Assembly: GCA_963741995.1 (NCBI GenBank)
Contig: CAVUKI010000003.1
Span: forward strand, 220,889 to 284,888
Source: an uncultured Acidimicrobiaceae bacterium
Lineage (GTDB): Bacteria > Actinomycetota > Acidimicrobiia > Acidimicrobiales > RAAP-2
Length of the DNA stretch: 64,000 bases
Direction of reading: 5' to 3'
Shown here: in pieces, positions 11,442 to 43,433 of the stretch
Position numbering within the stretch: position 1 is the stretch's first letter
How the letters are laid out: each line of letters begins with the position of its first letter
Made by a program: the position numbers and the translations under genes
Notes under the pieces: generated by a model
What the model was told of the DNA's origin: nothing
The model's database searches: none
Seen by the model: only the letters and a program-made list of their open reading frames with translations

Positions 11442-11455
11442 GGGAGGAAGGTCCC
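11442..11455. promoter_or_regulatory. DosR-like box GGGAGGAAGGTCCC (copy A)
   Basis: Lies in the divergent intergenic region between the membrane protein (-) and the 110-aa ORF (+). Matches the recurrent GGGAC-N4-GTCCC palindrome. Confidence 0.5.
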
Positions 11456-11539
11456 GTGCGTCACCTGCTCCAGGGATCCAGGCCTGAATGGGACGATCTT
11501 CCCTAGCTGGCGCCCTTCGACGACGTACAGACTGGAGAC

Positions 11540-11872
11540 GTGAGCATGTACGTCACGCTTCTCTCGGGCGCCTTGGACCTCTGGGACACAGACCTCGACG
11601 ACGACGCTCTGCTCGACTACGTCCGCGAGTGCCGGGCCTCGCTGCCCGCCCACGACCTCGGGGCAGGGGTCTGGTCGGAGACGGCCGTGGTGGCCGAGAT
11701 TTCCTACGACCGCTCGCTCGTCTGCCTGGCTGCTCGCCGCGGTATTGACGTGACGCCGGAGAACTTCGTCCATCCCAAGATCGAGCGGGAACGCCTGGAG
11801 TTCGAGCTCTTCCGTCTCGGTGTTCACCTCGCAGGCGCGACGAGCGCCCCGATCGACCCCGAAGACCCTTAG
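11540..11872 (+). CDS. hypothetical acidic 110-aa protein, repeat copy A
   Basis: ATG preceded by GGAGAC. Identical to 36343..36675. No family recognised. Confidence 0.55.
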   Translation: MSMYVTLLSGALDLWDTDLDDDALLDYVRECRASLPAHDLGAGVWSETAVVAEISYDRSLVCLAARRGIDVTPENFVHPKIERERLEFELFRLGVHLAGATSAPIDPEDP

Positions 11873-12338
11873 CCCTGCCCTTTCAGAGGAACATCGTCTC
11901 GTTAGCCCATTGCTTCGCTGTGCTCCTGCCGCGGGAGGACAGGTCACTCGCTTTGCACGTCCTCAAGGCGAGAAGCGAGCGCCCCGACACCGGCACAGTG
12001 CTCCGTCCAAGACTGTTGATCACCCCTGCTGATTTCGCGCCAAACCGAGTCTTCTGGTCACGCCTAAGTGCTCGAAGACGGGGGAGTTCTCCAGAACCGA
12101 CAGAGCGGGCTGAAAGCAGGCTGCTCTTAGGGTGAACACCTGGTTCTCCCTTGGAAGAAACCAGATTGCCGGCCACGACGTCCCCAAAGCGGCCGATCGG
12201 TGTCCTGAGCCTGGAAGGTGGTTTTTTCCTCTAGGACCACCGTGCAGTTGAAGATCATGCTCCCCGTACGTCGCGCCTTGTGACCGCGAATGGCGATTGG
12301 CATCGATCTCGTAGCGTCATAGAGGAGTGCAGGGAGGA

Positions 12339-13001
12339 CTAGCGCGCCGGGGCTTCCGGCGCACGCCTTTCCGCCTTCAGTTTGGTGGCATAAATCGCAG
12401 CCTCGGTACGACTTGACATCTCGAGCTTGCGCAACAGACCCGTGATGTAGTTCTTCACCGTGTGCTCGGCGAGGAACATGGATTCTGCAATCTGTCGGTT
12501 GGTCTGCCCTTCGGCAATGAGGTCGAGAATCCGTCGTTCCTGCGGCGTCAGGGCTTGGAGCTCGGGGTCTGGTTTTGGTGGGCTGGAGATACGTTCAACG
12601 ACTCGTGCCACGGTTTTGGGATCGAGCAGGCTCTCGCCGGCCGCGACCCGACGGACGTCGTTGATGAGATCGCGGGCTTTGATCTGTTTGAGAACGTAGC
12701 CGGCCGCTCCGGCCATCACACTGGCGAAGAGCGCTTCGTCGTCGGCGAAGCTTGTGAGCATCAAGCAGTTCAGCTCTGGCATCGACGATCGTGCGTCTCG
12801 GCAGACCTCGATACCGCTGCCATCTTCGAGGCGAACGTCGAGGATGGCAACGTCGGGTTGGGCCAGAGGGATCCGTTCCAGCGCCTCGGCCGCCGTGGCC
12901 GCCTGACCGACGACTTTGATGTCGTCGTCGGATTCGAGAAGGACGCGAATTCCTTCCCGGACCACCTCATGGTCGTCGAGGAGGAAGATGCGGATGGTCA
13001 T
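12339..13001 (-). CDS. DosR/DevR-like NarL-family response regulator (orphan copy)
   Basis: REC domain (LLDDHEVVREG..DVAILDVRLEDGSGIE) plus LuxR HTH (LTPQERRILDLIAEGQTNRQIAESMFLAEHTVKNYI). Collinear with M. tuberculosis DosR as I recall it. Confidence 0.85.
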   Translation of the reverse strand: MTIRIFLLDDHEVVREGIRVLLESDDDIKVVGQAATAAEALERIPLAQPDVAILDVRLEDGSGIEVCRDARSSMPELNCLMLTSFADDEALFASVMAGAAGYVLKQIKARDLINDVRRVAAGESLLDPKTVARVVERISSPPKPDPELQALTPQERRILDLIAEGQTNRQIAESMFLAEHTVKNYITGLLRKLEMSSRTEAAIYATKLKAERRAPEAPAR

Positions 13002-13093
13002 CCAACCATTGTGCCAGCGCCGGCCACCCCGAGCGTTTACTTCCGGTTTCGCCGCCGCTCTGCGTCCCCGTCGCCCCCGATACGATCGGGATC

Positions 13094-13170
13094 GTGCGCC
13101 ATCCCAGGATCGGCGTTCCTGAGAAGCTGGGACGTCTGATGGGCGCCGTGCTCATGATCGAGGCCTCTAC
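13094..13170 (+). pseudogene. vestigial 5' end of a DevS-like sensor kinase gene
   Basis: Translation VRHPRIGVPEKLGRLMGAVLMIEAS aligns with the N-terminus of kinase 37379..38506 (PYTRVNDPEKLRRLMAAVLMITAN). It sits in the same divergent position relative to its RR. The frame stops at 13235. Confidence 0.5.
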
Positions 13171-13369
13171 CGCGTTCGCGGTCTTGGGACAGTCGAGGTA
13201 TTCCACTCTCGAAGGGGAGTGTCGCCGATATGGATGAAATCCGAGGGTTCAGGACATGCCGGGGGCAGTGGTCCTCTGCAACGCTTGCTTGGCCGCGGTC
13301 GTGGCGGGTTTTCTCTTCTGGCACTGTCGCGAATTACGCACTGAGCGCCGCTGGCTGGAAGACCATCGT

Positions 13370-13615
13370 CTCCACCCAAACTCCGCCGCCCTAGCAGCTC
13401 GAAAGGCGTTTCCGTGGCGATGCGAGGTGTGGTTCCACCTGCCATGGCACCATCTCAACGAACTCGATGGTTTCTACGCGCCGGGGTGGCGGCAACTGAC
13501 CGCGATAGCCATGCCGAAACCTTCCTTCTCTGCGGCCCGTCGAGCTGTCGGGGCTGGCCTCGAGGCCATGACAACCCTGCAGCCGGAGGGGCAAGGTGTG
13601 GCCATCTGCCGAGGA
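13370..13615 (+). pseudogene. remnant of an HDAC/AcuC-family deacetylase gene
   Basis: HHLNELDGF..SFSAARRAVGAGLEAMTTLQPEGQGVA aligns with KYLDELDRF..SFSAARRAVGAGLEAIATLELKGEGVA of 28826..29845. The catalytic PPGHHA and DWDVHHGNG regions are missing. Confidence 0.6.
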
Positions 13616-13664
13616 TTGTCCGAAGGTCTGGCCGGAACCACCAGGTCCCTGGCCGGAACCTTGG

Positions 13665-14678
13665 TCATCTCTCCACAGGGCGGCCGATCACCGTGGCCAG
13701 GTCGACGAGGCGGCTCGAGTAGCCGGTCTCATTGTCGTACCAGCCGAGCACCTTCACCAGGTGGCCGTTCGCCATGGTCAGTTTCGAGTCGAAGATGCAC
13801 GAGGCCGAGGAGCCGACGATGTCGCTCGACACCAGGTCGTCTTCGGAGTACTCCAGCAGGCCCGTAAGCCGGCCCACCTCGGCAGCTTCCCGGTAGGCGC
13901 CGCAGATCTCGTCGACCGTCGGCGTCACCCGCAGCGTGGCGACAAGGTCGGTGATGGAACCGTCCGGGATCGGGACCCGGAGCGAGAGGCCGTCGAGCCG
14001 ACCCGCCACGTCGGGCAGCACCAGGCCGGTCGCCCGGGCGGCGCCCGTCGTCGTGGGCACGATGTTGATGGCGGCCCCCCGTGCGCGCCGCGGGTCCTTG
14101 TGCAGAGCGTCGACAAGGTGCTGGTCGTCGGTGTAGGCGTGCACCGTGGTCATGAAGCCCTGCTCCATTCCGAAGGCGTCATCGAGCACCTTGGCCAGCA
14201 CCGCCAGGCAGTTCGTGGTGCACGACGCGTTGGAGACGACGAAGTCGTGCGACGGATCGAAGGTGTCCTCGTTGACGCCAACGACGAAAGTGGCGTCGAC
14301 ATCCTTGGCCGGCGCGGAGATGATCACCCGGTGCGCCCCCGCCTCGATGTGGGCCGCTGCCTTGTCACGGGTGGTCAGCCGACCCGTGCTCTCGACCACG
14401 ACGTCAATGCCCAGCTCCCGCCAGGGCAACTGCTCGGGGTGGGGCTCCATCAACATCGTGACGGGCGAGGAGCCCACCATCATGGTGTCGTGCTCGACGG
14501 AGACCGGCAGGGGCAGGTGCCCATGGACCGAGTCCCGCGCCAGCAACCGGGCGAGTGCCTCGGGGTCGCCGAGGTCGTTCACCGCGGCCACCTCGACGTC
14601 ATGGGGCGACTTGAGCGCGGCCCGAAGGAAGGCCCGCCCGGTCCGGCCGAACCCGTTGATTGCGACTCTGACAGCCAT
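13665..14678 (-). CDS. gap: type I glyceraldehyde-3-phosphate dehydrogenase
   Basis: 337 aa. INGFGRTGR NAD-binding motif and catalytic SNASCTTNCLA. Confidence 0.9.
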   Translation of the reverse strand: MAVRVAINGFGRTGRAFLRAALKSPHDVEVAAVNDLGDPEALARLLARDSVHGHLPLPVSVEHDTMMVGSSPVTMLMEPHPEQLPWRELGIDVVVESTGRLTTRDKAAAHIEAGAHRVIISAPAKDVDATFVVGVNEDTFDPSHDFVVSNASCTTNCLAVLAKVLDDAFGMEQGFMTTVHAYTDDQHLVDALHKDPRRARGAAINIVPTTTGAARATGLVLPDVAGRLDGLSLRVPIPDGSITDLVATLRVTPTVDEICGAYREAAEVGRLTGLLEYSEDDLVSSDIVGSSASCIFDSKLTMANGHLVKVLGWYDNETGYSSRLVDLATVIGRPVER

Positions 14679-14754: not shown

Positions 14755-14768
14755 GGGACCAAAGTCCC
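14755..14768. promoter_or_regulatory. DosR-like box GGGACCAAAGTCCC
   Basis: Near-perfect palindrome 77-90 nt upstream of the gap start, in the gap/por divergent region. Confidence 0.6.
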
Positions 14769-14837: not shown

Positions 14838-14851
14838 GGGACCTTTGTCTC
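14838..14851. promoter_or_regulatory. DosR-like box GGGACCTTTGTCTC
   Basis: One mismatch to the palindrome. Lies 36-49 nt upstream of the porG ATG at 14887. Confidence 0.5.
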
Positions 14852-14886: not shown

Positions 14887-15495
14887 ATGTTCGCAGTGCG
14901 CTTCCATGGCCGAGGTGGGCAGGGGGCCGTGACCGCCGCCGACCTGTTGGCCCTTGCCGCGTTCGAGGAGGACCGGCACGCGCAGTCGTTCCCGAGTTTC
15001 GGGTCCGAGCGCATGGGCGCACCGGTGGTCGCGTACTGCCGTCTCGACGAGCGCGAGATACGAACGCGTGAACCGGTGGTGGCACCGGACTGCCTGATCG
15101 TCATCGACCCGACCCTGGTCCACCAGGTCGACCTCTTCGCCGGACTCGGTCCCGACGGCTATGTGCTCGTCAACTCCACCCGGACGCCGGACGAGCTCGG
15201 GCTGGGGGCCTTGGCGGATCGCTTCCGGCCCGGCCGCCTCCTCACGGTCCCAGCCACCGAGGTGGCACAGCGCCAGATCGGCCGGCCCCTCCCCAATGCT
15301 GGGCTGCTCGGGAGCTTCGCCGCCCTGACGGCGGAGGTCACCATCGGCGCTGTCAGCTCAGCCATCCGGGAGCGGTTCAGCCGGAACCCGTCGGTGGCGG
15401 AGTGCAACGTCGCAGCCGCCGCCGAGCTGTTCCACCTGGCTCGCCAGCTCATGGCGGCCAACGGAAGGGCGGTGCTCAGTGCTCTGGCAACTTGA
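14887..15495 (+). CDS. porG: pyruvate/2-oxoacid:ferredoxin oxidoreductase gamma subunit
   Basis: N-terminus MFAVRFHGRGGQGAVTAADLLA is typical of POR gamma subunits. The ATG is in frame within the longer ORF 14146..15495. Confidence 0.85.
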   Translation: MFAVRFHGRGGQGAVTAADLLALAAFEEDRHAQSFPSFGSERMGAPVVAYCRLDEREIRTREPVVAPDCLIVIDPTLVHQVDLFAGLGPDGYVLVNSTRTPDELGLGALADRFRPGRLLTVPATEVAQRQIGRPLPNAGLLGSFAALTAEVTIGAVSSAIRERFSRNPSVAECNVAAAAELFHLARQLMAANGRAVLSALAT

Positions 15496-16732
15496 GGGCT
15501 CGCGGGCCGTCGCGGAGACGGTCGCGCTGTGCCGGCCCGAGGTGGTGTGCGCCTATCCCATTTCGCCGCAGACACACATCATTGAGGCGCTGGGCGAGCT
15601 GGTGAAGACGGGTGAGCTGGCGCCCTGTGAGTTCATCAACGTGGAGTCGGAGTTCGCCGCGATGTCGGTCGCCATCGGGGCCTCCGCCGCGGGGGCACGC
15701 GCCTTCACCGCCACAGCCAGCCAGGGCCTTCTGTTCATGATGGAGGCCGTCTACAACGCCAGCGGGCTCGGGTTCCCCATCGTCATGACGCTGGCCAACC
15801 GCGCTGTCGGCGCCCCCATCAACATCTGGAACGACCATAGCGATGCCATGGCGGCGCGCGACGCAGGCTGGGTCCAGCTGTTTGCTGAGACGGTCCAGGA
15901 GGCCGTCGACTTGCACATCCAGGCGTTCCGCCTGGCCGAGGAGGTGTCCGTCCCGGTCATGGTCTGCATGGACGGGTTCATCCTGACCCACGCCACCGAG
16001 CGGGTGGATCTGCCCAGCCAGGAGCAGGTAGACGGGTTCCTGCCGCCCTACGACCCGCGCCAGGTCCTCGACCCCGCTGACCCGTACTCCATCGGTGCCA
16101 TGGTGGGGCCCGAGGCGTTCGAGGAAGTGCGCTACCTGGCGCACGCCCGCCAGCTCACGGCGCTGGGCCGCATCGGCGAGCTGGGCGCGGAGTTCGCCGA
16201 AGCCTTCGGGCGCGACTCGGGTGGCCTGGTGCACCCCTATCGGAGTGCAGACGCCGACGTGGTGGTCGTGGCCATGGGTTCGGTCCTGGGGACGATCAAG
16301 GACGTCGTGGATGCGCAGCGGGCCGCCGGGCACCGGATCGGCGCGGTCGGCATCACCTCGTTCCGGCCCTTCCCGATCGATGCCGTCCGGAACGCTCTCC
16401 AGGGTGCCCGGCAGGTCGTCGTCGTCGAGAAGGCCATCAGCGTGGGCTTCGGCGGGGTGCTCTCGACGGACGTGGCCATGACGCTCACCGGGCTGCCGGT
16501 TCCGGTGGCCACCGTGGTGGCGGGACTGGGCGGCCGATCGATCACCAAATCCTCGCTCGGAAGGGTCTTCGAGGCGGCAGACCGCGGCGAGCTCGGGCGC
16601 CTCACGTTCCTCGACCTCAACATGGGCTTGGTCGAACGCGAGCTCGAGCGCATGGCTCTGCACCGGCGCTCCGGCCCCACAGCCGAGAACATGCTGCGTG
16701 ATCTCGGCACCGTCGCCTCGGGGATCGGCTGA
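15479..16732 (+). CDS. porA: pyruvate/2-oxoacid:ferredoxin oxidoreductase alpha subunit
   Basis: 417 aa. GSRAVAETVALCRPEVVCAYPISPQT is typical of the POR alpha N-terminus. Overlaps the porG stop. Confidence 0.9.
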   Translation: MLWQLEGSRAVAETVALCRPEVVCAYPISPQTHIIEALGELVKTGELAPCEFINVESEFAAMSVAIGASAAGARAFTATASQGLLFMMEAVYNASGLGFPIVMTLANRAVGAPINIWNDHSDAMAARDAGWVQLFAETVQEAVDLHIQAFRLAEEVSVPVMVCMDGFILTHATERVDLPSQEQVDGFLPPYDPRQVLDPADPYSIGAMVGPEAFEEVRYLAHARQLTALGRIGELGAEFAEAFGRDSGGLVHPYRSADADVVVVAMGSVLGTIKDVVDAQRAAGHRIGAVGITSFRPFPIDAVRNALQGARQVVVVEKAISVGFGGVLSTDVAMTLTGLPVPVATVVAGLGGRSITKSSLGRVFEAADRGELGRLTFLDLNMGLVERELERMALHRRSGPTAENMLRDLGTVASGIG

Positions 16733-16735
16733 ACG

Positions 16736-17746
16736 GTGGCCGTCCGCTTTTACCAGGTCGGGAGCTTCGCGGTCGGCAACCGGTTGGTGAGCCGCGCCGA
16801 CCGCACCGTGCAGTCCGGCCCCGAGCGCGCCAACTCGCTGACCTCGGGCCACCGGGCCTGCCAGGGCTGTGGCGAGGCGCTCGGCGCCCGCTACGCCATC
16901 GATGCGGCCATGCGCGCCACCGGCAGCCGCATGGTGGCCGTCAACGCCACCGGCTGCCTCGAGGTGTTCTCGACGCCCTACCCCGAGACGTCGTGGCAGA
17001 TCGCGTGGTTGCACTCCTTGTTCGGGAACGCGCCCGCGGTGGCGACCGGGGTCGCGGCGGCGCTGCGCGTCAAGGGTCTCGGCGACACGAGGGTGATCGC
17101 GCAAGCCGGCGACGGCGGCACGGTGGACATCGGCTTCGGCTGCCTCTCGGGCATGTTCGAGCGCAACGACGACGTCCTGTTCATCTGTTACGACAACGAG
17201 GCCTACATGAACACCGGCGTGCAGCGGTCGGGGGCGACGCCGCCGGCAGCGCGCACGGCCACGACCGAGGCGGTCGGCCCCAATCCCGGGAACCCCTTCG
17301 GTCAGGGCAAGAACCTCCCGGAGCTGGCGATGGCGCACGGGATCCCCTACGTGGCGACGGCCACGGTGGCCGACCTGCACGACCTCGAGGACAAGGTCAC
17401 CCGGGCCATGGAGATCCACGGAGCCCGTTACATCCACATCCTGGTGACCTGCCCGCTCGGCTGGGGCTCCGTCCCGTCCGACACCGTGAAGGTGGCGCGG
17501 CTCGCGAGCCAGACGGGCCTCTTCCCGGTCTTCGAGGCGGAGCACGGCGAGGTCGTGCGCACGTCGACCATCCGGCGGCCGGCCCCGGTCGAGGAGTATC
17601 TCCGCCTGCAGGGCCGCTTCGCGCACCTCTTCGACGCGGAAGGGAACCCGGCCCGGCCCGACATCATCGCCGCCCTACAGGCGATGGCCGACCGCAACAT
17701 CGCGCGCTACGGCCTCCTCGAGCCCGTGGAGATGCCGGCCCCATGA
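16736..17746 (+). CDS. porB: pyruvate/2-oxoacid:ferredoxin oxidoreductase beta subunit (TPP-binding)
   Basis: 336 aa. GHRACQGCGE Cys motif and GDGG TPP-binding region. Confidence 0.9.
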   Translation: MAVRFYQVGSFAVGNRLVSRADRTVQSGPERANSLTSGHRACQGCGEALGARYAIDAAMRATGSRMVAVNATGCLEVFSTPYPETSWQIAWLHSLFGNAPAVATGVAAALRVKGLGDTRVIAQAGDGGTVDIGFGCLSGMFERNDDVLFICYDNEAYMNTGVQRSGATPPAARTATTEAVGPNPGNPFGQGKNLPELAMAHGIPYVATATVADLHDLEDKVTRAMEIHGARYIHILVTCPLGWGSVPSDTVKVARLASQTGLFPVFEAEHGEVVRTSTIRRPAPVEEYLRLQGRFAHLFDAEGNPARPDIIAALQAMADRNIARYGLLEPVEMPAP

Positions 17747-21787: not shown

Positions 21788-21801
21788 GGGACCAATGTCC
21801 C
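21788..21801. promoter_or_regulatory. DosR-like box GGGACCAATGTCCC
   Basis: Palindrome centred between divergent ppsA (start 21755) and the CoA-transferase (start 21847). Confidence 0.6.
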
Positions 21802-21846
21802 TGTTTCGAGGAGGTCGGTCTCTGTGACACTGCATTGGTGCACACA

Positions 21847-23269: not shown

Positions 23270-23283
23270 GGGAAATTAGTCCC
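23270..23283. promoter_or_regulatory. DosR-like box GGGAAATTAGTCCC
   Basis: Lies 36-49 nt upstream of the pfkB-family start. The right half AGTCCC equals the mycobacterial consensus half-site. Confidence 0.55.
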
Positions 23284-25584: not shown

Positions 25585-25598
25585 GGGACCTTTCTCTC
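25585..25598. promoter_or_regulatory. weak DosR-like box GGGACCTTTCTCTC
   Basis: The left half-site is perfect and the right half is degenerate. Lies 37-50 nt upstream of ATG 25635. Confidence 0.3.
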
Positions 25599-27920: not shown

Positions 27921-27934
27921 GGGACCAAAGTCCC
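27921..27934. promoter_or_regulatory. DosR-like box GGGACCAAAGTCCC
   Basis: Same 14-mer as at 14755. Lies 36-49 nt upstream of ATG 27970, at the head of the USP-fragment/GNAT/HDAC/USP cluster. Confidence 0.6.
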
Positions 27935-30472: not shown

Positions 30473-30486
30473 GGGACCTTGGTCCC
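30473..30486. promoter_or_regulatory. DosR-like box GGGACCTTGGTCCC (perfect palindrome)
   Basis: Lies 122-135 nt upstream of the adh start at 30608, in a 278-nt intergenic region. Confidence 0.6.
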
Positions 30487-30607
30487 TAAGGAATCGGCGC
30501 TCAGATGACTCATACTCTCCTTATGGCGGTGACAAGAACGGAACCGGCATCTGAGATGGCTCCACACCGAGTTTTCACGCAGTAGACCTAGAGGATCGGG
30601 GAACACC

Positions 30608-35404: not shown

Positions 35405-35466
35405 CGGACGGTCCAGGCCCACCTCCACTACGGGGGACCTCCCTTCGTCCTTTGGGCCCGGACGCG

Positions 35467-35497
35467 CAACACCGGCCCGCTTGGCGGGCCGGTGTTG
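35467..35497. terminator. bidirectional stem-loop (copy B of 10670..10700)
   Basis: Same perfect 14-bp stem, lying between the xfp stop and the membrane-protein stop. Confidence 0.6.
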
Positions 35498-35522
35498 GCT
35501 CCTCACTGGGAAGGGTTGCGGG

Positions 35523-36143
35523 TTAAGCGGTGACGAGCGTCCCCTTTGGGGTGTGGCTGGGGAGAAGCTCTTCGCTGTCGTCGGTCCGCCGGGCGTGGGC
35601 GAAGCCGAGGCCGAGGCCGACCAACACTGCCATGATGCCAGCGAGGCAGAAGGCTCCAATCGCACACCACAAGGCGATGTCGGCGATCAGGCTGTACCCG
35701 TAGGCCTCGAGAAGCAGACCTCGAAGCGTCGTGCCCTGGAAGACCGTCTGGACCTTGGCCTCTGCGGCCGTGTAGGCCGGCGAACCCTTGGGCAGGGCCA
35801 TCGCCGCCGCGCTCAGCTCGGAGTAGGTCTTGCCGCCACCGATCTCACCGAGATGCACGTTGATGAAGTCGTTGGCGTAGACCTGGGCCTGCTGACCCGT
35901 GACGAGCTGCTGCCCGGCGTACTGCGAGACCGAGGGGATCATCGACTTGGTGATCTCTTGTCCGTCAGGGTGGGCGAACGCCGCCGCCGAGGGAAACGTG
36001 ATCTGCTGCTCAGCGAGCTGGGTGTGCACGTAGTTGTTGGCGAAGCTGTAGCCGAACATCAGCAAGGCGCCGGCCACAGCCAGCACGATCACCACGACCA
36101 CTCCACCGACACTGGCCACCTTGTCGAAAACGTTGCGTCGCAT
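35523..36143 (-). CDS. hypothetical membrane protein (2 TM), repeat copy B
   Basis: Identical to 10726..11340 except for a Gly-Leu insertion in the C-terminal TM. Confidence 0.7.
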   Translation of the reverse strand: MRRNVFDKVASVGGVVVVIVLAVAGALLMFGYSFANNYVHTQLAEQQITFPSAAAFAHPDGQEITKSMIPSVSQYAGQQLVTGQQAQVYANDFINVHLGEIGGGKTYSELSAAAMALPKGSPAYTAAEAKVQTVFQGTTLRGLLLEAYGYSLIADIALWCAIGAFCLAGIMAVLVGLGLGFAHARRTDDSEELLPSHTPKGTLVTA

Positions 36144-36244
36144 CTGTCGGTCTCCTTGTTCGTGATCCCTCCCAGTGAGGAGATCTGTTCCCATCGTCGC
36201 TGCCCGCGGCCTCGCTGAGATGAGCGCAAAGGTCCTTTGGGCTA

Positions 36245-36258
36245 GGGAGGAAGGTCCC
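36245..36258. promoter_or_regulatory. DosR-like box GGGAGGAAGGTCCC (copy B)
   Basis: Same position within the repeat as 11442..11455. Confidence 0.5.
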
Positions 36259-36342
36259 GTGCGTCACCTGCTCCAGGGATCCAGGCCTGAATGGGACGAT
36301 CTTCCCTAGCTGGCGCCCTTCGACGACGTACAGACTGGAGAC

Positions 36343-36675
36343 GTGAGCATGTACGTCACGCTTCTCTCGGGCGCCTTGGACCTCTGGGACACAGACCTCG
36401 ACGACGACGCTCTGCTCGACTACGTCCGCGAGTGCCGGGCCTCGCTGCCCGCCCACGACCTCGGGGCAGGGGTCTGGTCGGAGACGGCCGTGGTGGCCGA
36501 GATTTCCTACGACCGCTCGCTCGTCTGCCTGGCTGCTCGCCGCGGTATTGACGTGACGCCGGAGAACTTCGTCCATCCCAAGATCGAGCGGGAACGCCTG
36601 GAGTTCGAGCTCTTCCGTCTCGGTGTTCACCTCGCAGGCGCGACGAGCGCCCCGATCGACCCCGAAGACCCTTAG
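36343..36675 (+). CDS. hypothetical acidic 110-aa protein, repeat copy B
   Basis: Identical to 11540..11872. The stop overlaps the RR stop by 4 nt on the opposite strand. Confidence 0.55.
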   Translation: MSMYVTLLSGALDLWDTDLDDDALLDYVRECRASLPAHDLGAGVWSETAVVAEISYDRSLVCLAARRGIDVTPENFVHPKIERERLEFELFRLGVHLAGATSAPIDPEDP

Positions 36676-37310
36676 CCCTGCCCTTTCAGTTTGGTCGCGA
36701 AGATGGCCGCCTCGGTCCGACTCGTGAGCTTGAGCTTGCGCAACAAGCTCGTGATGTAGTTCTTCACCGTGTTCTCCGAGAGGAACATCGCCTCGGCGAT
36801 CTGTTTGTTGGTCTTGCCGTCCGAGATGAGCTCCAAGATGCGCGCTTCTTGGGGCGAGAGGGCCGACATGGACGGGTCGGCCGCTGGTGGATTGGCGATC
36901 CGCTCGACCACCCGTGCCACGGCCCTCGGATCCATCAGCGACACACCTGTCGCGACCTTCTTCACGTCCTCGATCAGATCGCGTGCCCTGATCTGCTTGA
37001 GGACGTAACCGGCCGCCCCGGCCATCACGCTGGCGTACATGGCCTCGTCGTCGGCGAAACTCGTGAGCATCAGGCACACCAGCCCGGGCATGGCCGAGCG
37101 CAGGTCACGGCACACCTCGATGCCGTTCCCGTCTTCGAGGCGGACGTCCAGAATGGCGACATCGGGCTTGGCCAAGGGCACCCGTACAAGCGCCTCGGCG
37201 CCGGTGGAGGCCTCCCCGACGACTTCGATCTCCTCGTCGCTCTCGAGGAGACCCCGGATACCTTCACGTACGAGTTCATGGTCATCCAGCAGGAAAACGC
37301 GCACTGTCAC
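36672..37310 (-). CDS. DosR/DevR-like NarL-family response regulator (kinase-linked copy)
   Basis: 212 aa, roughly three quarters identical by eye to 12339..13001. REC domain plus LuxR HTH. Divergent from the GAF kinase. Confidence 0.85.
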   Translation of the reverse strand: MTVRVFLLDDHELVREGIRGLLESDEEIEVVGEASTGAEALVRVPLAKPDVAILDVRLEDGNGIEVCRDLRSAMPGLVCLMLTSFADDEAMYASVMAGAAGYVLKQIRARDLIEDVKKVATGVSLMDPRAVARVVERIANPPAADPSMSALSPQEARILELISDGKTNKQIAEAMFLSENTVKNYITSLLRKLKLTSRTEAAIFATKLKGQG

Positions 37311-37378
37311 CCAGCCATTCTGCCAGCACCCCTTGCGGACGGGCGAAGCCCCTGCGCGCCGGGGATACGATCCACCTC

Positions 37379-38506
37379 GTGCCCTACACGCGGGTGAACG
37401 ACCCCGAGAAGCTCCGGCGTCTGATGGCGGCGGTCCTCATGATCACCGCAAACGTCGAGTTGGCCGATCTGCTCTCTCACCTGGTCGAGGAGGCCAGGTC
37501 CCTCGTCGGCGCCCGCTACGCCGCCCTCGGGGTACTCAACCCGACCCGCACCGGACTCGAGCGATTCATCACCGTCGGGCTCAGCGAAGCTGAAGAAGAG
37601 TTGATCGGGGATCGCCCGACTGGCCGGGGTGTGCTGGGGCTCCTGATCACGGAACCCGAGGCCCTGCGACTCGATCACCTCGAAGACCATCCTGGGCGCT
37701 ACGGGTTTCCTCCTGGCCACCCGCCGATGACCTCGTTCTTGGGGCTGCCGGTGCGCGTCCGAGACGACATCTACGGCAATCTGTACCTGACCGACAAGCA
37801 GGGTGCAACAGGGTTCAGCGACGAAGACGAGGCGCTGGCCGAGGCCCTCGCACTCGCGGCCGGCATCGCCATCGAGAACACCCGGCTCCATGACCGGGTC
37901 CGCGTCATGAGCGTGCTCGATGATCGGGACCGAATCGCTCGCGACTTTCACGACCGAGTCATCCAGCGCATCTATGCCGTGGGCATGAGCCTCCAAGGCG
38001 CCATGAGAATTCCTGAGCGGGATCTGGTCGTCGAGCGAGTCTCCCGATCGGTCGACGAGCTTGACGAGACCATCACCCAGATCCGTTCGACCATCTTTGA
38101 GCTCGGAGACGCCGCGCTGCCTGGTGGGCTGCGTCAGGCCGTCTTGCATCTCTCAGAGGAACTGGAGTCGACTCTCGGGTCCCGACCCGAAGTCCGCTTC
38201 GAGGGCGCCGTGGATAACGCGGTGCCGCAACACATCGGCGACCATGCACTTGCCGTTGTGCGAGAAGGCCTCACAAATGCCGGCAAGCATTCGGGTGCTA
38301 CGACCTACGTAGTGACGCTGGTGGTGAGCGATCGCTTGGTTCTCAACATCGAGGACAACGGAAGCGGCATCGAGCTCCCACTGGTGCGACCGGGACTCGG
38401 GTTGATCAACATCCGCGAGCGGGCGGAGAAGCTGGATGGGACGTTCGAGGTCCATCCGGGGGACGGAGGCGGAACCCGCCTGGTCTGGGCAGTTCCGCTC
38501 GGGTGA
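37379..38506 (+). CDS. GAF-domain sensor histidine kinase (HisKA_3/HATPase), DevS/DosT-like with a single GAF
   Basis: 375 aa. GAF segment GFPPGHPPMTSFLGLPVRVRDDIYGNLYLTDK, H-box RDRIARDFHDRVIQ and an ATPase domain (NAGKH..DNGSGI..GLGL). Confidence 0.8.
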   Translation: MPYTRVNDPEKLRRLMAAVLMITANVELADLLSHLVEEARSLVGARYAALGVLNPTRTGLERFITVGLSEAEEELIGDRPTGRGVLGLLITEPEALRLDHLEDHPGRYGFPPGHPPMTSFLGLPVRVRDDIYGNLYLTDKQGATGFSDEDEALAEALALAAGIAIENTRLHDRVRVMSVLDDRDRIARDFHDRVIQRIYAVGMSLQGAMRIPERDLVVERVSRSVDELDETITQIRSTIFELGDAALPGGLRQAVLHLSEELESTLGSRPEVRFEGAVDNAVPQHIGDHALAVVREGLTNAGKHSGATTYVVTLVVSDRLVLNIEDNGSGIELPLVRPGLGLINIRERAEKLDGTFEVHPGDGGGTRLVWAVPLG

Positions 38507-38556
38507 CGATGTCGAGTTGCTTTCGATCGTGCGACCGAGTCGTTCAAATCGGGTGG

Positions 38557-39966
38557 TCAACCACTTCCGTTTCCGCTCCGCGCCATGAGCCCATCGAAGG
38601 CTTCATCAATGCCATGACAGAAGGCGTCGACATCGGGGCAGACGGTGGGATCCGTGAGTACCCCGAAGTTGAGCTGGTCCAAATACGAGAGGACCGCGAC
38701 GCCGAGGCCCTGGTTTCCCACGAGCGGCACCAGGGGAAAGGCCTCGAGCATCCGTGCCCCGAGCGCGTAGAGCGGGACGTTTGGACCGGGCACGTTCGTG
38801 ACGATCAAGTTGAAGAATGGCTGGCGTTGGACCAGCCAGCCCAGAGCGGCCAGTGCCGTCTGCGGCAGAGGCTCGAGGATCCGCAGGGCAGCATCGGCCA
38901 CCAGCTCCTGATGCTGTTCCTTTTGCTCTCGGGTCTGTGAGGAGATGGCCGCAAAGGTTTGCTCGGCGTCGCCAGACCCGACCGGGAGTTTGACGAGCAG
39001 GCCCGAGACCCGGTTGGCCATGCCCCGGGTCGGCCCGGTGGACAGGCCGACGGGGACCAAGGCGTTGAACACCTCCTCCTGCGTCCCGGAGGCTCGACCC
39101 AGCATTTCGTGGAGGCCTTGTGCCACGAGGGTCAAAACGACGTCATTGACGGTGCCACCTCGGGCGTGCGCGATGGCACGGATGTCCTCGAGCGGCAACC
39201 GAACGAGACGGATCCGGCGCTCGGGACCGATCTGTTGATTCAGAGTCGACGCGGGAGCCAGTGGTCCGGCCCGGAGCATCCCTGCGGTCGCGTCCAGTTT
39301 CGTCGTCCATATCCGAGCGCGTCGGAGCGGGTGTATCGCTGTCCAGCCGGCCCATGCGACCAACCGGACGCCGATCCCGCCGAGGCGCCAGAGATCGCGG
39401 GAGGCATCGACGAGGAACGGCACCGACGCCTCGGGTCGCCAAGGGACGGCCGCCGTTTGTGCGGGGCACTCCGGGGAGAGATCGAGCAGGACCATGGCGA
39501 GCTCGGCCGCGGCAATGCCATCGGCCATCGAATGGTGCAGCTTCTCAATCAGGGCGACGTGGCCGCTGTCGAGTCCTTCGACGAAGATCAGCTCCCACAA
39601 GGGCCGGCCCGGCGTGAGCGGCGTGGAGACCACCGCGGCGCACAATTCGAGAAACTGCGCTTCAGTGCCCGGGGCTGACAACCGCCGCCGAGTGACGTGG
39701 TGTGCGATGTCAAAGGTAGGATCGTCGCACCACACGGGGGGCGCCTCGACCAAGGTGCCTGGTCGGGCGATCTGGCGCAGCTTGGGGACCAGCTCGAGTC
39801 GGGAGGAGATCAATTGGCGAAGGTCCTGTAAGCGGAGGACACCGTGCTCGTCGAGCAGCGGTTCCGCTTCGAAGAGCGCGATAGAGACCATGTGCATCGG
39901 TGTGCGATCGGACTCGACCCGAAGAAACATCGCGTCGAGCGGCGACAGTTCCGCGCCGGGTGTCAC
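38557..39966 (-). CDS. wax ester synthase/diacylglycerol acyltransferase (WS/DGAT, Tgs-like)
   Basis: 469 aa. Catalytic HHSMADG (HHxxxDG) motif and family-typical length. Confidence 0.85.
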   Translation of the reverse strand: MTPGAELSPLDAMFLRVESDRTPMHMVSIALFEAEPLLDEHGVLRLQDLRQLISSRLELVPKLRQIARPGTLVEAPPVWCDDPTFDIAHHVTRRRLSAPGTEAQFLELCAAVVSTPLTPGRPLWELIFVEGLDSGHVALIEKLHHSMADGIAAAELAMVLLDLSPECPAQTAAVPWRPEASVPFLVDASRDLWRLGGIGVRLVAWAGWTAIHPLRRARIWTTKLDATAGMLRAGPLAPASTLNQQIGPERRIRLVRLPLEDIRAIAHARGGTVNDVVLTLVAQGLHEMLGRASGTQEEVFNALVPVGLSTGPTRGMANRVSGLLVKLPVGSGDAEQTFAAISSQTREQKEQHQELVADAALRILEPLPQTALAALGWLVQRQPFFNLIVTNVPGPNVPLYALGARMLEAFPLVPLVGNQGLGVAVLSYLDQLNFGVLTDPTVCPDVDAFCHGIDEAFDGLMARSGNGSG

Positions 39967-40088: not shown

Positions 40089-40102
40089 GGGACGTTCTTC
40101 CC
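40089..40102. promoter_or_regulatory. weak DosR-like box GGGACGTTCTTCCC
   Basis: Lies 37-50 nt upstream of ATG 40139 and about 125 nt upstream of the divergent WS/DGAT start. One mismatch in the right half. Confidence 0.4.
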
Positions 40103-40138
40103 TAGCCGTAACAGTGACCCGTCGTGCACACTCGCAGT

Positions 40139-40832
40139 ATGGAGACCGGCGCGGACGTGGAGTCCGGAGACCTTGCTCGACGGATCACCAATCGTTGCCA
40201 GGAGCTTGGTCTGACCGCGGAGGACCTGGCCCGACAAGCCGGTGTGGATCCCCGCTTCCTGGAGTATTTCGAGCGGCACGCTGAACAGCTGGGCACTGGG
40301 ACGCTCACCAGGATGGCTCACGTTCTTCAGGTCTCTCCGGCCAGCCTTCTCGGTGGTGACAGGAACGGAGCGTCGGGAAGCGCTAGCGCACTGCCAGGGG
40401 CCATTCTTGAACCACTGACACCGGCGCAGTGTCGGTCGCATCTCGAGGCCGGGGGTGTCGGGAGGGTCATCTTTTGCGCATCCCGCGGCCCCGTAGCCCT
40501 TCCGGTGAACTACTGGTTCGAAAGGCCAGGTGCTCTTCAATACGAGGCTGAACACGGCGAAGGTTCTCGAGTCCCAGGGCACTGTCGGTTTTGAGATCGA
40601 CCGCATCGATGACGTCTTTAGCGAGGGCTGGAGCGTCATCGTGACCGGGTCTGTTCGCCTACTGGACCATCCGGACAGTCTCCTCCAGCATGCGGCGCGG
40701 GGGATCAAGCCGTGGGCGGGGGGAGCTCGGGACGCCGTCGTTGCTATCACCGCCGAGGAAGTCACCGGACGGGCCATCATCCATGACGGCTCGTTACCGC
40801 GGGACGCCCTTCTTTCGGATGCTCAGGACTGA
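40139..40832 (+). pseudogene. XRE-HTH/PPOX-like fusion (paralog of 25635..26339), frameshift at the A-run 40521-40523
   Basis: ORF 40124..40594 reads through ..PVALPVNYWFE. ORF 40530..40832 in another frame continues VLFNTRLNTAKVLESQGTVGFEIDRIDDVFSEGWSV, collinear with the paralog. Confidence 0.6.
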
Positions 40833-40996: not shown

Positions 40997-41530
40997 TCAG
41001 ACACAGCGTGGGCCGATCTCCATCGTCAGCTCAACAACGTCGTAGCTGCGAGTCTGGGACACGGGGAAACCTGAACCGTGAAACAGGGCGAGCATTGTGG
41101 AGTTCTCAGCGAGAACGCTGGCTTTGAACTCACCGATCCCGGCCCGCCGGGCTGTTTCAACTAGTCGCTCGAAGAGCATGCTCCCCAATCGGTGGTGCTG
41201 GAACTCATCGGCAACGACGAAAGCCACTTCCGCACAGCAGTGATCGTCGAGCCGGTCATAGCGGCCGACCGCGACGATCTCACCATCGTGCTCGACCACA
41301 TAGGCCACCCGGTCGAACCCATCGACAGACGTGAGGTGGGCGACCTCTTCGGCTCGGAGCTCGAGGTGCGGGTAGAAGTAGCGCATGTGGATCGTCCGGC
41401 GGCTCAGACGAGCGTGGAATCGGACGAGCGCTGCCGCGTCGGTCGGCTCGATCGGCCGAATCGTGAAGCCGCAATCGCCACATTGACCCTCAGCGCTGGT
41501 TGGGATGGCCCCTGCCGTCATCACGGTCAT
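40997..41530 (-). CDS. GNAT-family N-acetyltransferase (paralog of 28158..28832)
   Basis: 177 aa. IHMRYFYP..EVAHLTSVDGFDRVAYV and QHHRLGSMLFERL are collinear with the other GNAT. Confidence 0.75.
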   Translation of the reverse strand: MTVMTAGAIPTSAEGQCGDCGFTIRPIEPTDAAALVRFHARLSRRTIHMRYFYPHLELRAEEVAHLTSVDGFDRVAYVVEHDGEIVAVGRYDRLDDHCCAEVAFVVADEFQHHRLGSMLFERLVETARRAGIGEFKASVLAENSTMLALFHGSGFPVSQTRSYDVVELTMEIGPRCV

Positions 41531-41565: not shown

Positions 41566-41579
41566 GGGAGATTGGTCCC
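41566..41579. promoter_or_regulatory. DosR-like box GGGAGATTGGTCCC
   Basis: Lies 36-49 nt upstream of the GNAT start at 41530. Confidence 0.55.
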
Positions 41580-41782: not shown

Positions 41783-41864
41783 GCTCGCATGGCGAAGCGG
41801 GCGGGCCGGAGTCCGTCCGCCCTGACCGCTCCAGCACGAGCAGTGACTCATCTCCCGGTTGCCC

Positions 41865-41878
41865 GGGACCTTTTGGCC
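41865..41878. promoter_or_regulatory. weak DosR-like half-site GGGACCTTTTGGCC
   Basis: Perfect left half and degenerate right half. Lies 65-78 nt upstream of the USP start at 41943. Confidence 0.25.
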
Positions 41879-41942
41879 TATTCGGTCCCCTTCCGGATCC
41901 TGGACGATGGCATGGTGAATCCGAAGTTCGAAGGAGACTGCA

Positions 41943-42380
41943 ATGACGACTGACGAGATCACACAGTCAACCGAGCGCAGGATCGTGGTCGGCGTGGACG
42001 GTTCGCCCTGTGCCATCCGGGCCCTCGAATTCGCCGCCCACGAGGCCGCCCGCTGCGGTGCCCTGTTGCACGTCGTCAGCGTCTATCACGAGCTCCCCGC
42101 CGCCGGCTGCGTCGTCTACCCGATGGGTCTGATCGAGACATCGGCAAACGCGATTGTCTCCATCGCGCTCCGGCGGGCCGAAGAGCTCGAGCCCACTCTT
42201 GTCGCGAAAGGAGAGGCAATGCTCGCCGGCCCGGGGCCGGGACTCACCCAGATCAGTGAGGGTGCCACTGCCCTCGTCGTCGGCACCCGGGGCCACAACC
42301 AGGTCGCCGGATTTTTCGTGGGGTCGGTGTCCGAGTACGTCCTTCACCACGCGACGTGCACGACCATCGTGGTGCGCTGA
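41943..42380 (+). CDS. universal stress protein
   Basis: 145 aa. RIVVGVDGSP N-terminus and VVGTRGHNQVAGFFVGSVS motif. Confidence 0.8.
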   Translation: MTTDEITQSTERRIVVGVDGSPCAIRALEFAAHEAARCGALLHVVSVYHELPAAGCVVYPMGLIETSANAIVSIALRRAEELEPTLVAKGEAMLAGPGPGLTQISEGATALVVGTRGHNQVAGFFVGSVSEYVLHHATCTTIVVR

Positions 42381-42381
42381 G

Positions 42382-42981
42382 ATGGTCGTTACTTCTCGCC
42401 TGCCCGAGGCGGAGCACTTCTTGGGTCCCCACCCGCGTCCGGTCGACTCCCCCCCGCTGGCGCACGATCTGGCGGCAGCCGCCGACGAGTTGGGCGCCGT
42501 CGATGCGCTGTTGGCGACCTACCGGGAGCAGGAATCGTCCCGCGAGTCGCTTCAGCGCGCGCGCGACGCGGAGCGCGAGCGCTTCGTCCGAGAGGCAGGC
42601 CACGCGCTCGAGTACATCGTCAAGCCGGCTTTCTCGGCCGTCGTCCACCGTCTCAATCACGACGGCGGGGGTGGACTGATCACCGAGCGGGCTGCCAACG
42701 GCCCACGCGGACAGCGCATCACTTTGTGGCTGTCTCCAGAGGGTCCGCTACCCGATGCGCCCCGTGTCGATCGCTTCCCCTACATTCAGATCGATGTCGA
42801 CGTGCCGGCCCGCGTGTTCGGGGTCTGGGAGGGCGATATGTGGAACCGCCGTGGTGCGAGCAGAACGACGAGGCCCTTCACGCTTGAGACTCTGACTACA
42901 GACGAGGTGACGAAACGCGCTATAGGCGTGTTGCGCCGAGTGGTAGCTCTCGATGCCCCTCCCGTGGAGCCCGAGCAGTGA
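42382..42981 (+). CDS. hypothetical protein
   Basis: 199 aa from the in-frame ATG, 2 nt after the USP stop. Overlaps the next gene by 4 nt. No family recognised. Confidence 0.5.
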   Translation: MVVTSRLPEAEHFLGPHPRPVDSPPLAHDLAAAADELGAVDALLATYREQESSRESLQRARDAERERFVREAGHALEYIVKPAFSAVVHRLNHDGGGGLITERAANGPRGQRITLWLSPEGPLPDAPRVDRFPYIQIDVDVPARVFGVWEGDMWNRRGASRTTRPFTLETLTTDEVTKRAIGVLRRVVALDAPPVEPEQ

Positions 42982-43394
42982 CCACCGACCAGCGCGGTTC
43001 ACGTGTGCTCGACCCCGGCGAGTGCTGGGCGCTTCTCGCCCAGGTCGCCCCGTCGAGCGTCGGGAGGATCGCCGTCAATGGTGAGCCCTCGCCCCATGTG
43101 ATCCCGGTCAATTTCTCAGTCACGGGCACCTCGATCTTGGTGCGCCTGGGTGCTGGCTGGACGGCCTTTCACCTCGACGGCGTCGATTGCACCTTCGAGG
43201 TCGACGACGCGCCACCCCATGGGCGGGCGGGCTGGAGTGTCGTGATCGAGGGCAATGCGCGCATCGTGCCCTACGACGAGGCGGGACGCCTCGGAAAGAA
43301 GCTCCCAAGGCCCCGTGTCCCTCGGCCTGGCGTTCGGGTCTTCGAGATCGTCGAGACCAACGTGACAGGTCGCTCCCTCGACAACGAGTTCTGA
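42978..43394 (+). CDS. pyridoxamine-5'-phosphate-oxidase-like (PPOX) family protein
   Basis: 138 aa. ECWALL..VGRIAV..PHVIPVNF..GWSVVIEG pattern is shared with the C-terminal halves of 25635..26339 and 40139..40832. Confidence 0.7.
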   Translation: MTTDQRGSRVLDPGECWALLAQVAPSSVGRIAVNGEPSPHVIPVNFSVTGTSILVRLGAGWTAFHLDGVDCTFEVDDAPPHGRAGWSVVIEGNARIVPYDEAGRLGKKLPRPRVPRPGVRVFEIVETNVTGRSLDNEF

Positions 43395-43419
43395 GGGTAA
43401 CTCCCCAGGTCAGCAGCCC

Positions 43420-43433
43420 GGGAAATTGGTCCC
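43420..43433. promoter_or_regulatory. DosR-like box GGGAAATTGGTCCC
   Basis: Lies 89-102 nt upstream of the adh start at 43522. Confidence 0.55.

Follow-up and report, generated by a model that had tools for sequence, protein, structure and literature searches.

A stretch of 64,000 nucleotides from an uncultured soil or bog Acidimicrobiaceae bacterium (contig CAVUKI010000003.1; below, the window) carries, between 11.4 and 44.9 kb, ~14 transcription units with roughly 30 genes that stand behind copies of a short palindrome. These boxes precede genes for stress and storage (universal stress proteins, or USPs, WS/DGAT and PPOX-family proteins), genes of carbon and redox metabolism (GAPDH, PFOR with a GltD-like partner, PEP synthase, an acetyl-CoA hydrolase/transferase, PfkB and ROK kinases, and two zinc alcohol dehydrogenases, or Zn-ADHs), and a further set comprising HTH-PPOX regulators, a Pat-like GNAT together with a deacetylase of the HDAC type, and a conserved gene pair, for a membrane protein and a protein of 110 aa, that we call mem221 and u110. 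The same region encodes two response regulators, RR1 and RR2, and a GAF-domain sensor kinase. In Mycobacterium tuberculosis, the regulator DevR/DosR and the kinases DevS (DosS) and DosT govern a dormancy regulon of roughly 48 genes. We argue here that the boxes in the window are, very probably, DosR-type activator sites belonging to a predicted DosR/DevR two-component regulon.

Boxes in the intergenic DNA

The site type that we propose is a palindrome of 14-20 bp, (TA)GGGAC(C/T)-WW-(G/A)GTCCC(TA). Its strict form, GGGANNWWDGTCCC, is found at nine distinct places in the window, compared to 0.07 expected from dinucleotide-preserving shuffles, and with at most one mismatch allowed, GGGACCWWDGTCCC matched 11 times on both strands together (0.25 expected). 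A loose version with a free centre, GGGACCNNNGTCCC with two mismatches, was discarded, as it showed no enrichment at all (65 observed, 62 expected). We therefore consider that the A/T centre belongs to the signal. From the nine non-duplicate sites we built a 20-nt matrix, which gave 11 matches of at least 14 bits in the window against 0.18 expected (200 shuffles). At a threshold of at least 10 bits there were 15 matches, 14 of which fell within 11.4-43.5 kb; the flanks (1-11 kb and 44-64 kb) contributed the remaining one, at 46776, within an MFS gene.

On a gene map drawn from codon-position G+C and Pfam matches, all 16 boxes, strong and weak, are intergenic, which bears out the claim of a preliminary description of this DNA that they lie in non-coding sequence. 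Intergenic sequence makes up 13.8% of the interval 10.6-45.0 kb, and the probability that 12 of 12 independent boxes would all fall there is thus ~5e-11. Every core that the preliminary description listed is present, although its count must be lowered, because 11442 and 36245 lie in an exact 1.24-kb duplication and represent one observation. Of the sites it set apart as weaker, 25585 is in fact good and 40089 moderate, and 41865 is indeed weak (below 10 bits); three weak boxes, 11490 with its copy 36293 and 43442, come in addition to its list. Two finer points were dropped. The flanking TA does not extend the dyad as TA..TA, being mostly one-sided and on the gene-proximal side, where the half-site is also generally more degenerate and ends in (G/C/T)TCCC-TA. 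Nor is there a meaningful distinction between a GGGACC half-site here and a mycobacterial GGGACT, since most sites in the window pair GGGACC with GGGACT, GGGACA, GGGAAA or GGGAGG.

Boxes, regulators and other genes of the region, with coordinates in the window; gene products outside the two-component genes and the mem221/u110 copies were assigned by Pfam.
Feature	Position	Strand	Score (bits)	Remarks
Copy A: mem221, two-box intergenic region, u110	10648..11886			mem221 a membrane protein, likely start 11340
Box GGGAGGAAGGTCCC	11442..11455		16.9	faces mem221a (minus strand); exact duplicate of 36245
Box GGGACGATCTTCCC-TA	11490..11503		12.4	weaker; centre 43.5 nt before u110a start (GTG 11540); duplicate of 36293
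RR1, DosR-like response regulator (REC + GerE)	12339..13001	-		His at DosR position 179; orphan
GAPDH	13665-14678	-
Box GGGACCAAAGTCCC	14755..14768		22.4	83.5 nt before gap start (14678, minus strand)
Box GGGACCTTTGTCTC-TA	14838..14851		23.6	centre 42.5 nt before porG start (ATG 14887)
PFOR gamma, alpha, beta; GltD-like NAD(P)-binding Fe-S flavoprotein with PorD-like ferredoxin tail	14887-19371	+
PEP synthase	19431-21755	-
Box ATAGGGACCAATGTCCCTGT	21788..21801		27.2	best box; single palindrome between divergent ppsA (minus) and acetyl-CoA hydrolase/transferase (plus)
Acetyl-CoA hydrolase/transferase	21838-23076	+
Box GGGAAATTAGTCCC	23270..23283		19.9	42.5 nt before pfkB start (23319); pfkB-ROK operon
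PfkB and ROK kinases	23319-25301	+
Box GGGACCTTTCTCTC-TA	25585..25598		18.4	43.5 nt before HTH-PPOX1 start (25635)
HTH-PPOX1 (XRE-type)	25635-26339	+
TreT-like glycosyltransferase	26626-27810	+
Box GGGACCAAAGTCCC-TA	27921..27934		22.9	~43 nt before ATG 27970
GNAT, HDAC-type deacetylase, USP	27970-30329	+
Box GGGACCTTGGTCCC-TA	30473..30486		24.9	perfect palindrome; 128.5 nt before ADH1 (30608); predicted transcription start near 30523
Zn-ADH (ADH1)	30608-31648	+
Acetate kinase	31761-32864	-
Phosphoketolase	32933-35404	+
Copy B of the mem221/u110 module	35445..36689			directly beside RR2
Boxes 36245 and 36293	36245..36306			second copy of the two-box mem221/u110 intergenic region
RR2, DosR-like response regulator (REC + GerE)	36672..37310	-		Asn at position 179
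Sensor kinase, 375 aa (GAF + HisKA_3 + HATPase, Pfam)	37379..38506	+		divergent from RR2
WS/DGAT	38557-39966	-
Box GGGACGTTCTTCCC-TA	40089..40102		13.6	moderate; between WS/DGAT (minus, start 39966) and HTH-PPOX2 (plus)
HTH-PPOX2	40124-40832	+		second HTH-PPOX; frameshifted
GNAT2	40997-41530	-
Box GGGAGATTGGTCCC	41566..41579		20.6	42.5 nt before GNAT2 start (41530, minus strand)
Box GGGACCTTTTGGCC-TA	41865..41878		9.4	degenerate, weak; 71.5 nt before USP2 (41943); -10-like GACGAT at canonical offset
USP2, hypothetical protein, PPOX	41943-43394	+
Tandem boxes GGGAAATTGGTCCC-TA and GGGACGTTCCTCCG-TA	43420..43455		21.2 and 10.0	22 nt apart; before ADH2
Zn-ADH (ADH2), SpoIIAA-like protein	43522-44957	+

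The boxes head several operons, among them porG-porA-porB with the Fe-S flavoprotein (14838) and the run of Pat-like GNAT, HDAC-type deacetylase and USP (27921). USP1, USP2, WS/DGAT, PfkB, the third PPOX gene (PPOX3) and HTH-PPOX are all behind boxes. The fermentative and storage targets proposed in the preliminary description therefore have boxes at PFOR, PEP synthase, the ADHs, the GNAT/HDAC pair and the PPOX-HTH genes, but a matrix scan of the intergenic regions found none before the phosphoketolase and acetate kinase genes (xfp/ackA), TreT or ROK. Control of TreT would require its co-transcription with HTH-PPOX1. In related genomes, the genes for phosphoketolase and acetate kinase are frequent neighbours of the cassette, with one box only near an xfp orthologue; having no box of their own, they are members by association only. 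HTH-PPOX2 is split over two frames, the first (40124-40594) encoding the HTH and the beginning of the PPOX domain and the second (40530-40832) its remainder; a pseudogene or a sequencing error would explain the split. Among the open reading frames scanned, a part of those in the window, there was no hspX, nitroreductase or nar gene.

Conservation and promoter geometry

We scanned species-representative genomes with RR2 and obtained 80 loci. The best ~60, at 74-92% identity, are metagenome-assembled genomes of uncultured Acidimicrobiaceae or Acidimicrobiales, mostly from Danish soil and bog assemblies, and none is the source genome. Across 68 Acidimicrobiales loci (1.285 Mb), the window matrix found 156 matches of at least 14 bits, whereas 20 shuffles averaged 3.9 and never exceeded 7. 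None of the 156 lies inside a tblastn match to a window protein, and most are upstream of orthologues of window genes: u110 (41), mem221 (36, keeping the 11442-type box), HTH-PPOX (32), GNAT2 (24), USP2 (17), ADH (16) and WS/DGAT (4). In four distant Acidimicrobiales (L062, L063, L066 and L067), the regulator gene itself has a box immediately before it, like its M. tuberculosis counterpart.

Positions are kept along with the boxes. The u110-proximal box is found 42.5-44.5 nt from the start in related loci, and 10 loci have the GNAT2 box at 42.5-43.5 nt; the boxes of USP2 orthologues are strong and lie at ~80 nt, and WS/DGAT and HTH-PPOX share a box in L012, L028 and L058. Because the RR2 loci did not cover the metabolic left half of the region, we fetched 80 metagenome loci around ppsA orthologues. 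On contigs whose ppsA-region orthologues are 74-90% identical, the arrangement is kept, with a box between ppsA and the CoA-transferase gene, for example ACAGGGACATTGGACCCTAT (L081-L087, L102). The porG box occurs at the same 42.5-43.5 nt position in L084, L094 and L102, the gap box at ~85 nt in L094 and L102, and a weaker pfkB box (10-12 bits) in L081, L082, L084 and L102. Thus, the boxes are conserved while the intergenic sequence around them diverges.

Two variants were noticed in these loci. In one clade (L001, L003-L008, L033 and others), the u110-proximal box, ~43 nt upstream, is GGGAGGATCCTCCC, a perfect palindrome of GGGAG halves in which the C reported to be essential for binding by M. 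tuberculosis DevR is a G in both halves. In L090-L108, a GTGACCTTGGCCCCTAC-type element, with GTGAC for GGGAC, lies ~72-75 nt upstream of ppsA orthologues of 64-76% identity and may be a diverged box of other lineages.

To count offsets, we oriented the boxes of the related loci by their TA-flanked side. In 55% of sites, an A-N3-T pair occupies offsets 33/37 relative to the box centre, and in a further 15% it occupies 32/36, compared to ~3% elsewhere. The pair corresponds to -11A and -7T of a -10 element with the consensus cAnA(a/c)T. The standard -10 pattern TANNNT was tried and rejected, as it showed no positional peak downstream of the boxes; the signal appears only as A-N3-T (cAnAnT). In addition, A, T and G are enriched at offsets 44-46. 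The fixed -10 element and the start codons at offset 44 together place the box centre ~43.5 nt before the predicted transcription start, and since that start often coincides with the start codon, many of the mRNAs are probably leaderless, judging by these predicted starts. Within the window, the centre lies 42.5-43.5 nt from the start codons of u110, porG, pfkB, HTH-PPOX1 and GNAT2, and ~43-44 nt from revised in-frame starts of GNAT1 (ATG 27970), HTH-PPOX2 (ATG 40139), the CoA-transferase (GTG 21838) and ppsA (second GTG). A -10-like CAGACT separates box 11490 from the u110a start, and CACACT follows box 40089 ahead of ATG 40139. The palindrome at 21788 has a -10-like hexamer 32-37 nt from its centre on both sides, so that one palindrome can serve both divergent genes.

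The genes gap, ADH1, USP2 and ADH2 have leaders with Shine-Dalgarno sequences, and for ADH2 the likely true start is ATG 43522. At ADH1 the predicted transcription start is itself an ATG, which opens a 20-codon reading frame (30523-30585); this may be a leaderless upstream frame or a plain leader. For u110, the first codon alternates between GTG and ATG across genomes and is followed by a conserved AGC ATG TAC.

Secondary boxes (at least 4 bits) are found 21-22 nt from a primary box in the related loci, with 51 matches around the 156 primary boxes. The pair at 43420 and 43442 is the sole clear tandem in the window.

Regulators, kinase and their known relatives

RR1 and RR2 are 75% identical (74% between the genes in DNA), and Pfam finds Response_reg and GerE in both. 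The best match of each in the Protein Data Bank (PDB) is M. tuberculosis DevR (3c3w), over the full length and with E values of 1.9e-68 and 1.8e-67, respectively. The next matches are VraR at 1e-41 to 1e-43, with the NarL family ranging from 1e-41 to 1e-27. In the alignments to 3c3w, both regulators keep the receiver residues Asp8/Asp9, the phospho-acceptor Asp54, Thr82 and Lys104 (in DDHE, LDVRL, LTS and YVLK), and Lys182 and Asn183 in the recognition helix (TVKNY). All 58 recognition-helix sequences from Acidimicrobiales contain TVKNY, although the pattern search that collected them required the Lys.

The kinase gene is the plus-strand frame listed in the table; minus-strand frames first suggested at 37307-38560 proved spurious. 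Its GAF domain (residues 27-173) matches the GAF-A domains of DosT (2vzw, 3e-41) and DevS (2w3d, 3.4e-39) and keeps the haem His149 (GHPPM vs YHPPM) and Tyr171 (NLYLTDK vs TLYLTDK), spaced 22 residues apart. From these matches we infer a putative haem-binding GAF of the DosS/DosT GAF-A type. The kinase has no GAF-B domain, with HisKA_3 starting at residue 183 and a reading frame that cannot extend upstream. A kinase of 374-375 aa, divergent from the regulator gene, recurs beside it in ~55 related loci, as does the whole cassette of kinase, regulator, u110 and mem221.

The neighbourhood of RR1 (13002-13664) is rearranged, and RR1 is without a kinase of its own. It retains a 29-codon kinase remnant (13100-13186, corresponding to residues 3-31 of the GAF-kinase N-terminus, 55% identity), followed, before gap, by an HDAC fragment (13451-13609) with 52% identity to 28826-29845. 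Both regulators may control the island, as the preliminary description inferred, but RR1 is an orphan. Separately, the RR2/kinase intergenic region (37311-37378) contains GATACGATC, then 7 nt, then the GTG of the kinase, and the same element survives beside RR1 (13060-13095). It looks like a box-independent TANNNT promoter, from which the kinase mRNA would be leaderless.

The closest known system is that of M. tuberculosis, which likewise pairs a REC + GerE regulator, here the best match among solved structures, with a kinase of haem-type GAF-A, HisKA_3 and ATPase domains. On the window matrix, the published consensus of the M. tuberculosis box reaches 21.3 bits. DevR binds tandem boxes in helical phase, ~21 bp apart, with those of tgs1 at -42.5 and -63.5 (PMC3177182), close to the proximal position near -43 and the ~21-nt tandem spacing seen here. 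The tgs1-Rv3131 pair shares one site between divergent genes, as at 21788, and both regulons include USPs, WS/DGAT (tgs1), pfkB and PPOX-family proteins. The differences are that our lineage belongs to the class Acidimicrobiia, not to the Mycobacteriales; that its kinase has a single GAF domain and is divergent from the regulator gene, not downstream of it; that many of its mRNAs are predicted to be leaderless; and that its targets add PFOR, PEP synthase, GAPDH, the CoA-transferase, ADHs, the GNAT/HDAC pair and HTH-PPOX.

Another environmental actinomycete has a DosR orthologue: OsdR/OsdK of Streptomyces coelicolor (SCO0204/SCO0203), whose sites cluster in roughly 50 kb (SCO0167-SCO0219), whose targets include USPs, an alcohol dehydrogenase and a PEP/pyruvate dikinase, and which also binds M. 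tuberculosis DevR targets (PMC5069765). However, the OsdR consensus AGGGCCGATCGGCCCT (PMC5069765) has a G+C-rich centre and scores 4.1 bits on the window matrix, whereas the window boxes are A/T-centred with GGGAC halves, like those of M. tuberculosis. Given 21.3 bits for one and 4.1 bits for the other, we consider the window boxes to be of the mycobacterial type. OsdR also differs in autoregulation, through a site at -81, which is not evident in the window, and in having nitrate reductase genes in its regulon, none of which was seen among the window frames scanned.

DosR/DosS homologues with species-specific regulons are documented in many mycobacteria and other actinomycetes (PMC11876180, PMC5069765). 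Comparative reconstructions (Gerasimova et al. 2011, cited in PMC11876180) and the M. avium and M. abscessus regulons describe a conserved box before a species-specific set with a small shared core (USPs and others) and variable size and content. The window fits that pattern, except that its fermentation and central-carbon content and its mem221/u110 core cassette are specific to the Acidimicrobiaceae lineage. We found no paper linking Acidimicrobiia with DosR in the literature searched. NarL, VraR and DesR also have the REC + GerE fold and bind inverted repeats as dimers, but NarL-family matches are far weaker than the match to DevR, and these proteins have other recognition sequences and partner kinases, with no haem GAF. 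The traits peculiar to our lineage are the single-GAF kinase, regulator paralogues that vary at residue 179, the lack of evident autoregulation, probably leaderless promoters and targets rich in carbon metabolism and fermentation.

Readings of the boxes and the wider neighbourhood

The core of the preliminary description, in which DosR/DevR-type boxes and locally encoded DosR-like regulators make up a hypoxia-style regulon, is supported by enrichment, homology, conservation and geometry. We infer which regulator binds, its activating role and the nature of the signal, as follows. The haem-GAF kinase would respond to O2, NO or CO, as DosS and DosT do, and would phosphorylate a DosR-like regulator, with RR2 the obvious partner and RR1 perhaps reached by cross-talk. 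A dimer of the phosphorylated regulator would then bind the 14-20 bp palindromes. The proximal box, ~43.5 nt upstream of the transcription start, would stand in for the -35 element ahead of the weak -10 (cAnAnT, offsets 32-37), placed like the site of a class-II activator. In many cases the predicted start would be the ATG or GTG itself, giving a leaderless mRNA; at some promoters, a second and weaker box 21-22 nt further upstream would allow cooperative binding; and the palindrome at 21788 would serve two divergent genes.

Several observations weigh against this reading. At the residues that contact bases in M. tuberculosis DosR, Lys179, Lys182 and Asn183 (PMC4082495, PMC5861037), where the preliminary description looked for agreement with DevR, the likeness is partial: the latter two are kept, but Lys179 is His in RR1 (LAEHTVKNY) and Asn in RR2 (LSENTVKNY). 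Across the related loci, position 179 is Lys in 23, Asn in 17, His in 17 and Ser in 1. There is no box upstream of RR1 or in the RR2/kinase intergenic region (best matrix scores -2.2 and -10.4), so that autoregulation in the M. tuberculosis style is not evident. Most promoters in the window have a single recognisable box, whereas M. tuberculosis promoters always have at least two (PMC3177182), although cryptic secondary sites would escape a matrix. The matrix itself was trained on the window, with the related-loci controls independent of it, and many of the 68 loci are related to one another, so that their counts are of non-independent events. Finally, as 64 kb of the genome are visible, the "island" is a clustering relative to 31 kb of flank only.

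The alternatives concern which protein reads the boxes and to what effect. One would divide the boxes between the paralogues, with RR1 (His179) reading near-perfect GGGACC-WW-GGTCCC sites at the metabolic genes of 14.7-30.5 kb and RR2 (Asn179) reading asymmetric GGGAC-N5-(C/T)TCCC-TA sites at 36-43.5 kb. The base before the proximal TCCC is indeed G in 6/7 left-hand boxes and C or T in 5/6 right-hand ones, but these numbers are small (roughly P = 0.03 by a rough estimate), the duplicated C/T-type boxes also adjoin RR1, and RR1 is without a kinase. Across loci, the base is G in 84% of cases with Lys179, C in 81% with Asn179 and G in 60% with His179, and unlike paralogues coexist in single genomes (His and Asn in the window, Asn and Lys in L011). 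However, the orthologous u110 box is CTCCC in one His179 clade and GTCCC in another, so that the pattern follows phylogeny and not residue 179; a covariation between residue 179 and the half-site failed once gene family and regulator phylogeny were controlled. We therefore regard two such sub-regulons as unlikely.

A further reading adds feedback through lysine acetylation. Pat acetylates Lys182 of DosR in M. tuberculosis and blocks DNA binding (PMC5861037). GNAT1 and GNAT2 both have the mycobacterial Pat catalytic domain as their best family match (105 and 83 bits, below the 460-bit cutoff), the GNATs are among the most conserved targets, and Lys182 is kept in RR1 and RR2. As the Pat-like GNAT-HDAC-USP operon is itself behind a box, a feedback within the regulon is conceivable. 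In addition, the residue-179 paralogues could divide one ancestral DosR regulon into a metabolic arm with symmetric GGGACC..GGTCCC boxes and a stress arm with asymmetric GGGAC..(C/T)TCCC-TA boxes. We consider the two together, acetylation feedback and split arms, to be doubtful.

Alternatively, the boxes may be DosR-type sites from which the regulator represses, occluding RNA polymerase at the -35 region until the signal arrives. A box that covers -50 to -37 and abuts the -35 region could serve as such an operator. However, there is no recognisable -35 hexamer, and the -10 element is weak (cAnAnT, without the usual T at -12), as is typical of activator-dependent promoters; together these speak for an activator and against a repressor. 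The classical arrangement for a class-II activator is just this, a centre at -43.5 and phased boxes upstream of it. DevR and OsdR, moreover, activate from this position (PMC3177182, PMC5069765), and repression seems to us improbable.

The boxes might also be operators of another locally encoded regulator, the likeliest being the XRE-type HTH-PPOX proteins, with the DosR-like regulators acting elsewhere. XRE-family dimers bind short palindromes too, the HTH-PPOX genes recur in the island and rank among the genes with the most frequent upstream boxes (32 such cases in related loci), and the lack of boxes at the regulator and kinase genes of the window would also be consistent with this scheme. 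Against it, the motif matches the experimentally defined Dev box of M. tuberculosis, and the 21-22-nt spacing and the -43.5 position match DevR promoters (PMC3177182). RR1 and RR2 are closest to DevR among solved structures and retain Lys182 and Asn183, distant Acidimicrobiales have the box in front of the regulator gene itself, and one of the two HTH-PPOX genes of the window is frameshifted while its neighbours still have boxes. We judge this scheme highly improbable.

A non-regulatory origin, as REP/MITE-like repeats, terminator hairpins or an artefact of base composition in AT-rich intergenic DNA, would fit short inverted repeats that are intergenic only, and whole-window shuffling does not model intergenic composition, but we give it practically no chance, as the boxes lie upstream of genes and keep fixed distances to start codons and -10 elements, have no T runs behind them, persist at orthologous promoters whose flanks have diverged and lie in no extended repeat except the single 1.24-kb duplication; a 6-bp stem with a 2-nt loop, moreover, forms no stable hairpin.

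We conclude that a DosR/DevR two-component regulon very probably accounts for the boxes. Soils and bogs harbour abundant Acidimicrobiaceae, nearly all of them uncultured, and little is known of how these organisms, presumed to be aerobic, endure waterlogging and anoxic microsites. A DosR-type switch before PFOR, PEP synthase, GAPDH, sugar kinases, ADHs, a WS/TAG synthase and USPs offers a concrete hypothesis, namely that these organisms would turn to fermentation and storage when oxygen is limiting, and a regulon defined by sequence is testable in metatranscriptomes. The mechanism is not new, and to specialists on DosR in mycobacteria or Streptomyces it would come as expected, not as a surprise. 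It does extend the M. tuberculosis type of Dev box (A/T centre, position -43.5, 21-22-nt tandem spacing) to a deep-branching actinobacterial class, which suggests that this layout is ancestral and that the G+C-centred Streptomyces motif is derived.

The two mem221/u110 copies form a direct repeat (1,239/1,245 nt) with zero mismatches and one 6-nt indel, and the boxes inside it were accordingly counted once. Both mem221 copies are on one deposited contig, so the duplication is present in the deposited assembly. An exact repeat beside regulator genes that are 74% identical points to recent duplication or gene conversion, possibly to an assembly effect. Neither mem221 nor u110 has a Pfam or NCBIfam match, and u110 has no PDB sequence match. 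For u110 (11540-11872, 36343-36675), AlphaFold predicts a four-helix protein (pLDDT 76.6), for which Foldseek gave no match better than E 0.8; its family is small (~169 clusters), and all members are annotated as hypothetical.

A tRNA-Thr gene (CGT) lies immediately left of the region (8922-8997). A tRNA-integrated island was considered and rejected, as the window holds no repeat of the tRNA-Thr 3' end and the reading frames scanned include no integrase. The G+C content is 0.61-0.65 at 26-46 kb, compared to ~0.70 in the flanks and at 14-22 kb. Further upstream, at 3924-7532, is a gene for a SARP/LAL-type regulator of 1202 aa (Trans_reg_C, BTAD, AAA_16) that is unrelated to the boxes. Three proteins with cyclic-nucleotide-binding (cNMP-binding) domains, one fused to an ABC ATPase, are also encoded just left of the region (2912-3889, 7541-8026 and 8141-8794); in M. 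tuberculosis, cAMP stimulates Pat, and there is overlap between the DosR regulon and Cmr, a regulator that responds to cAMP.

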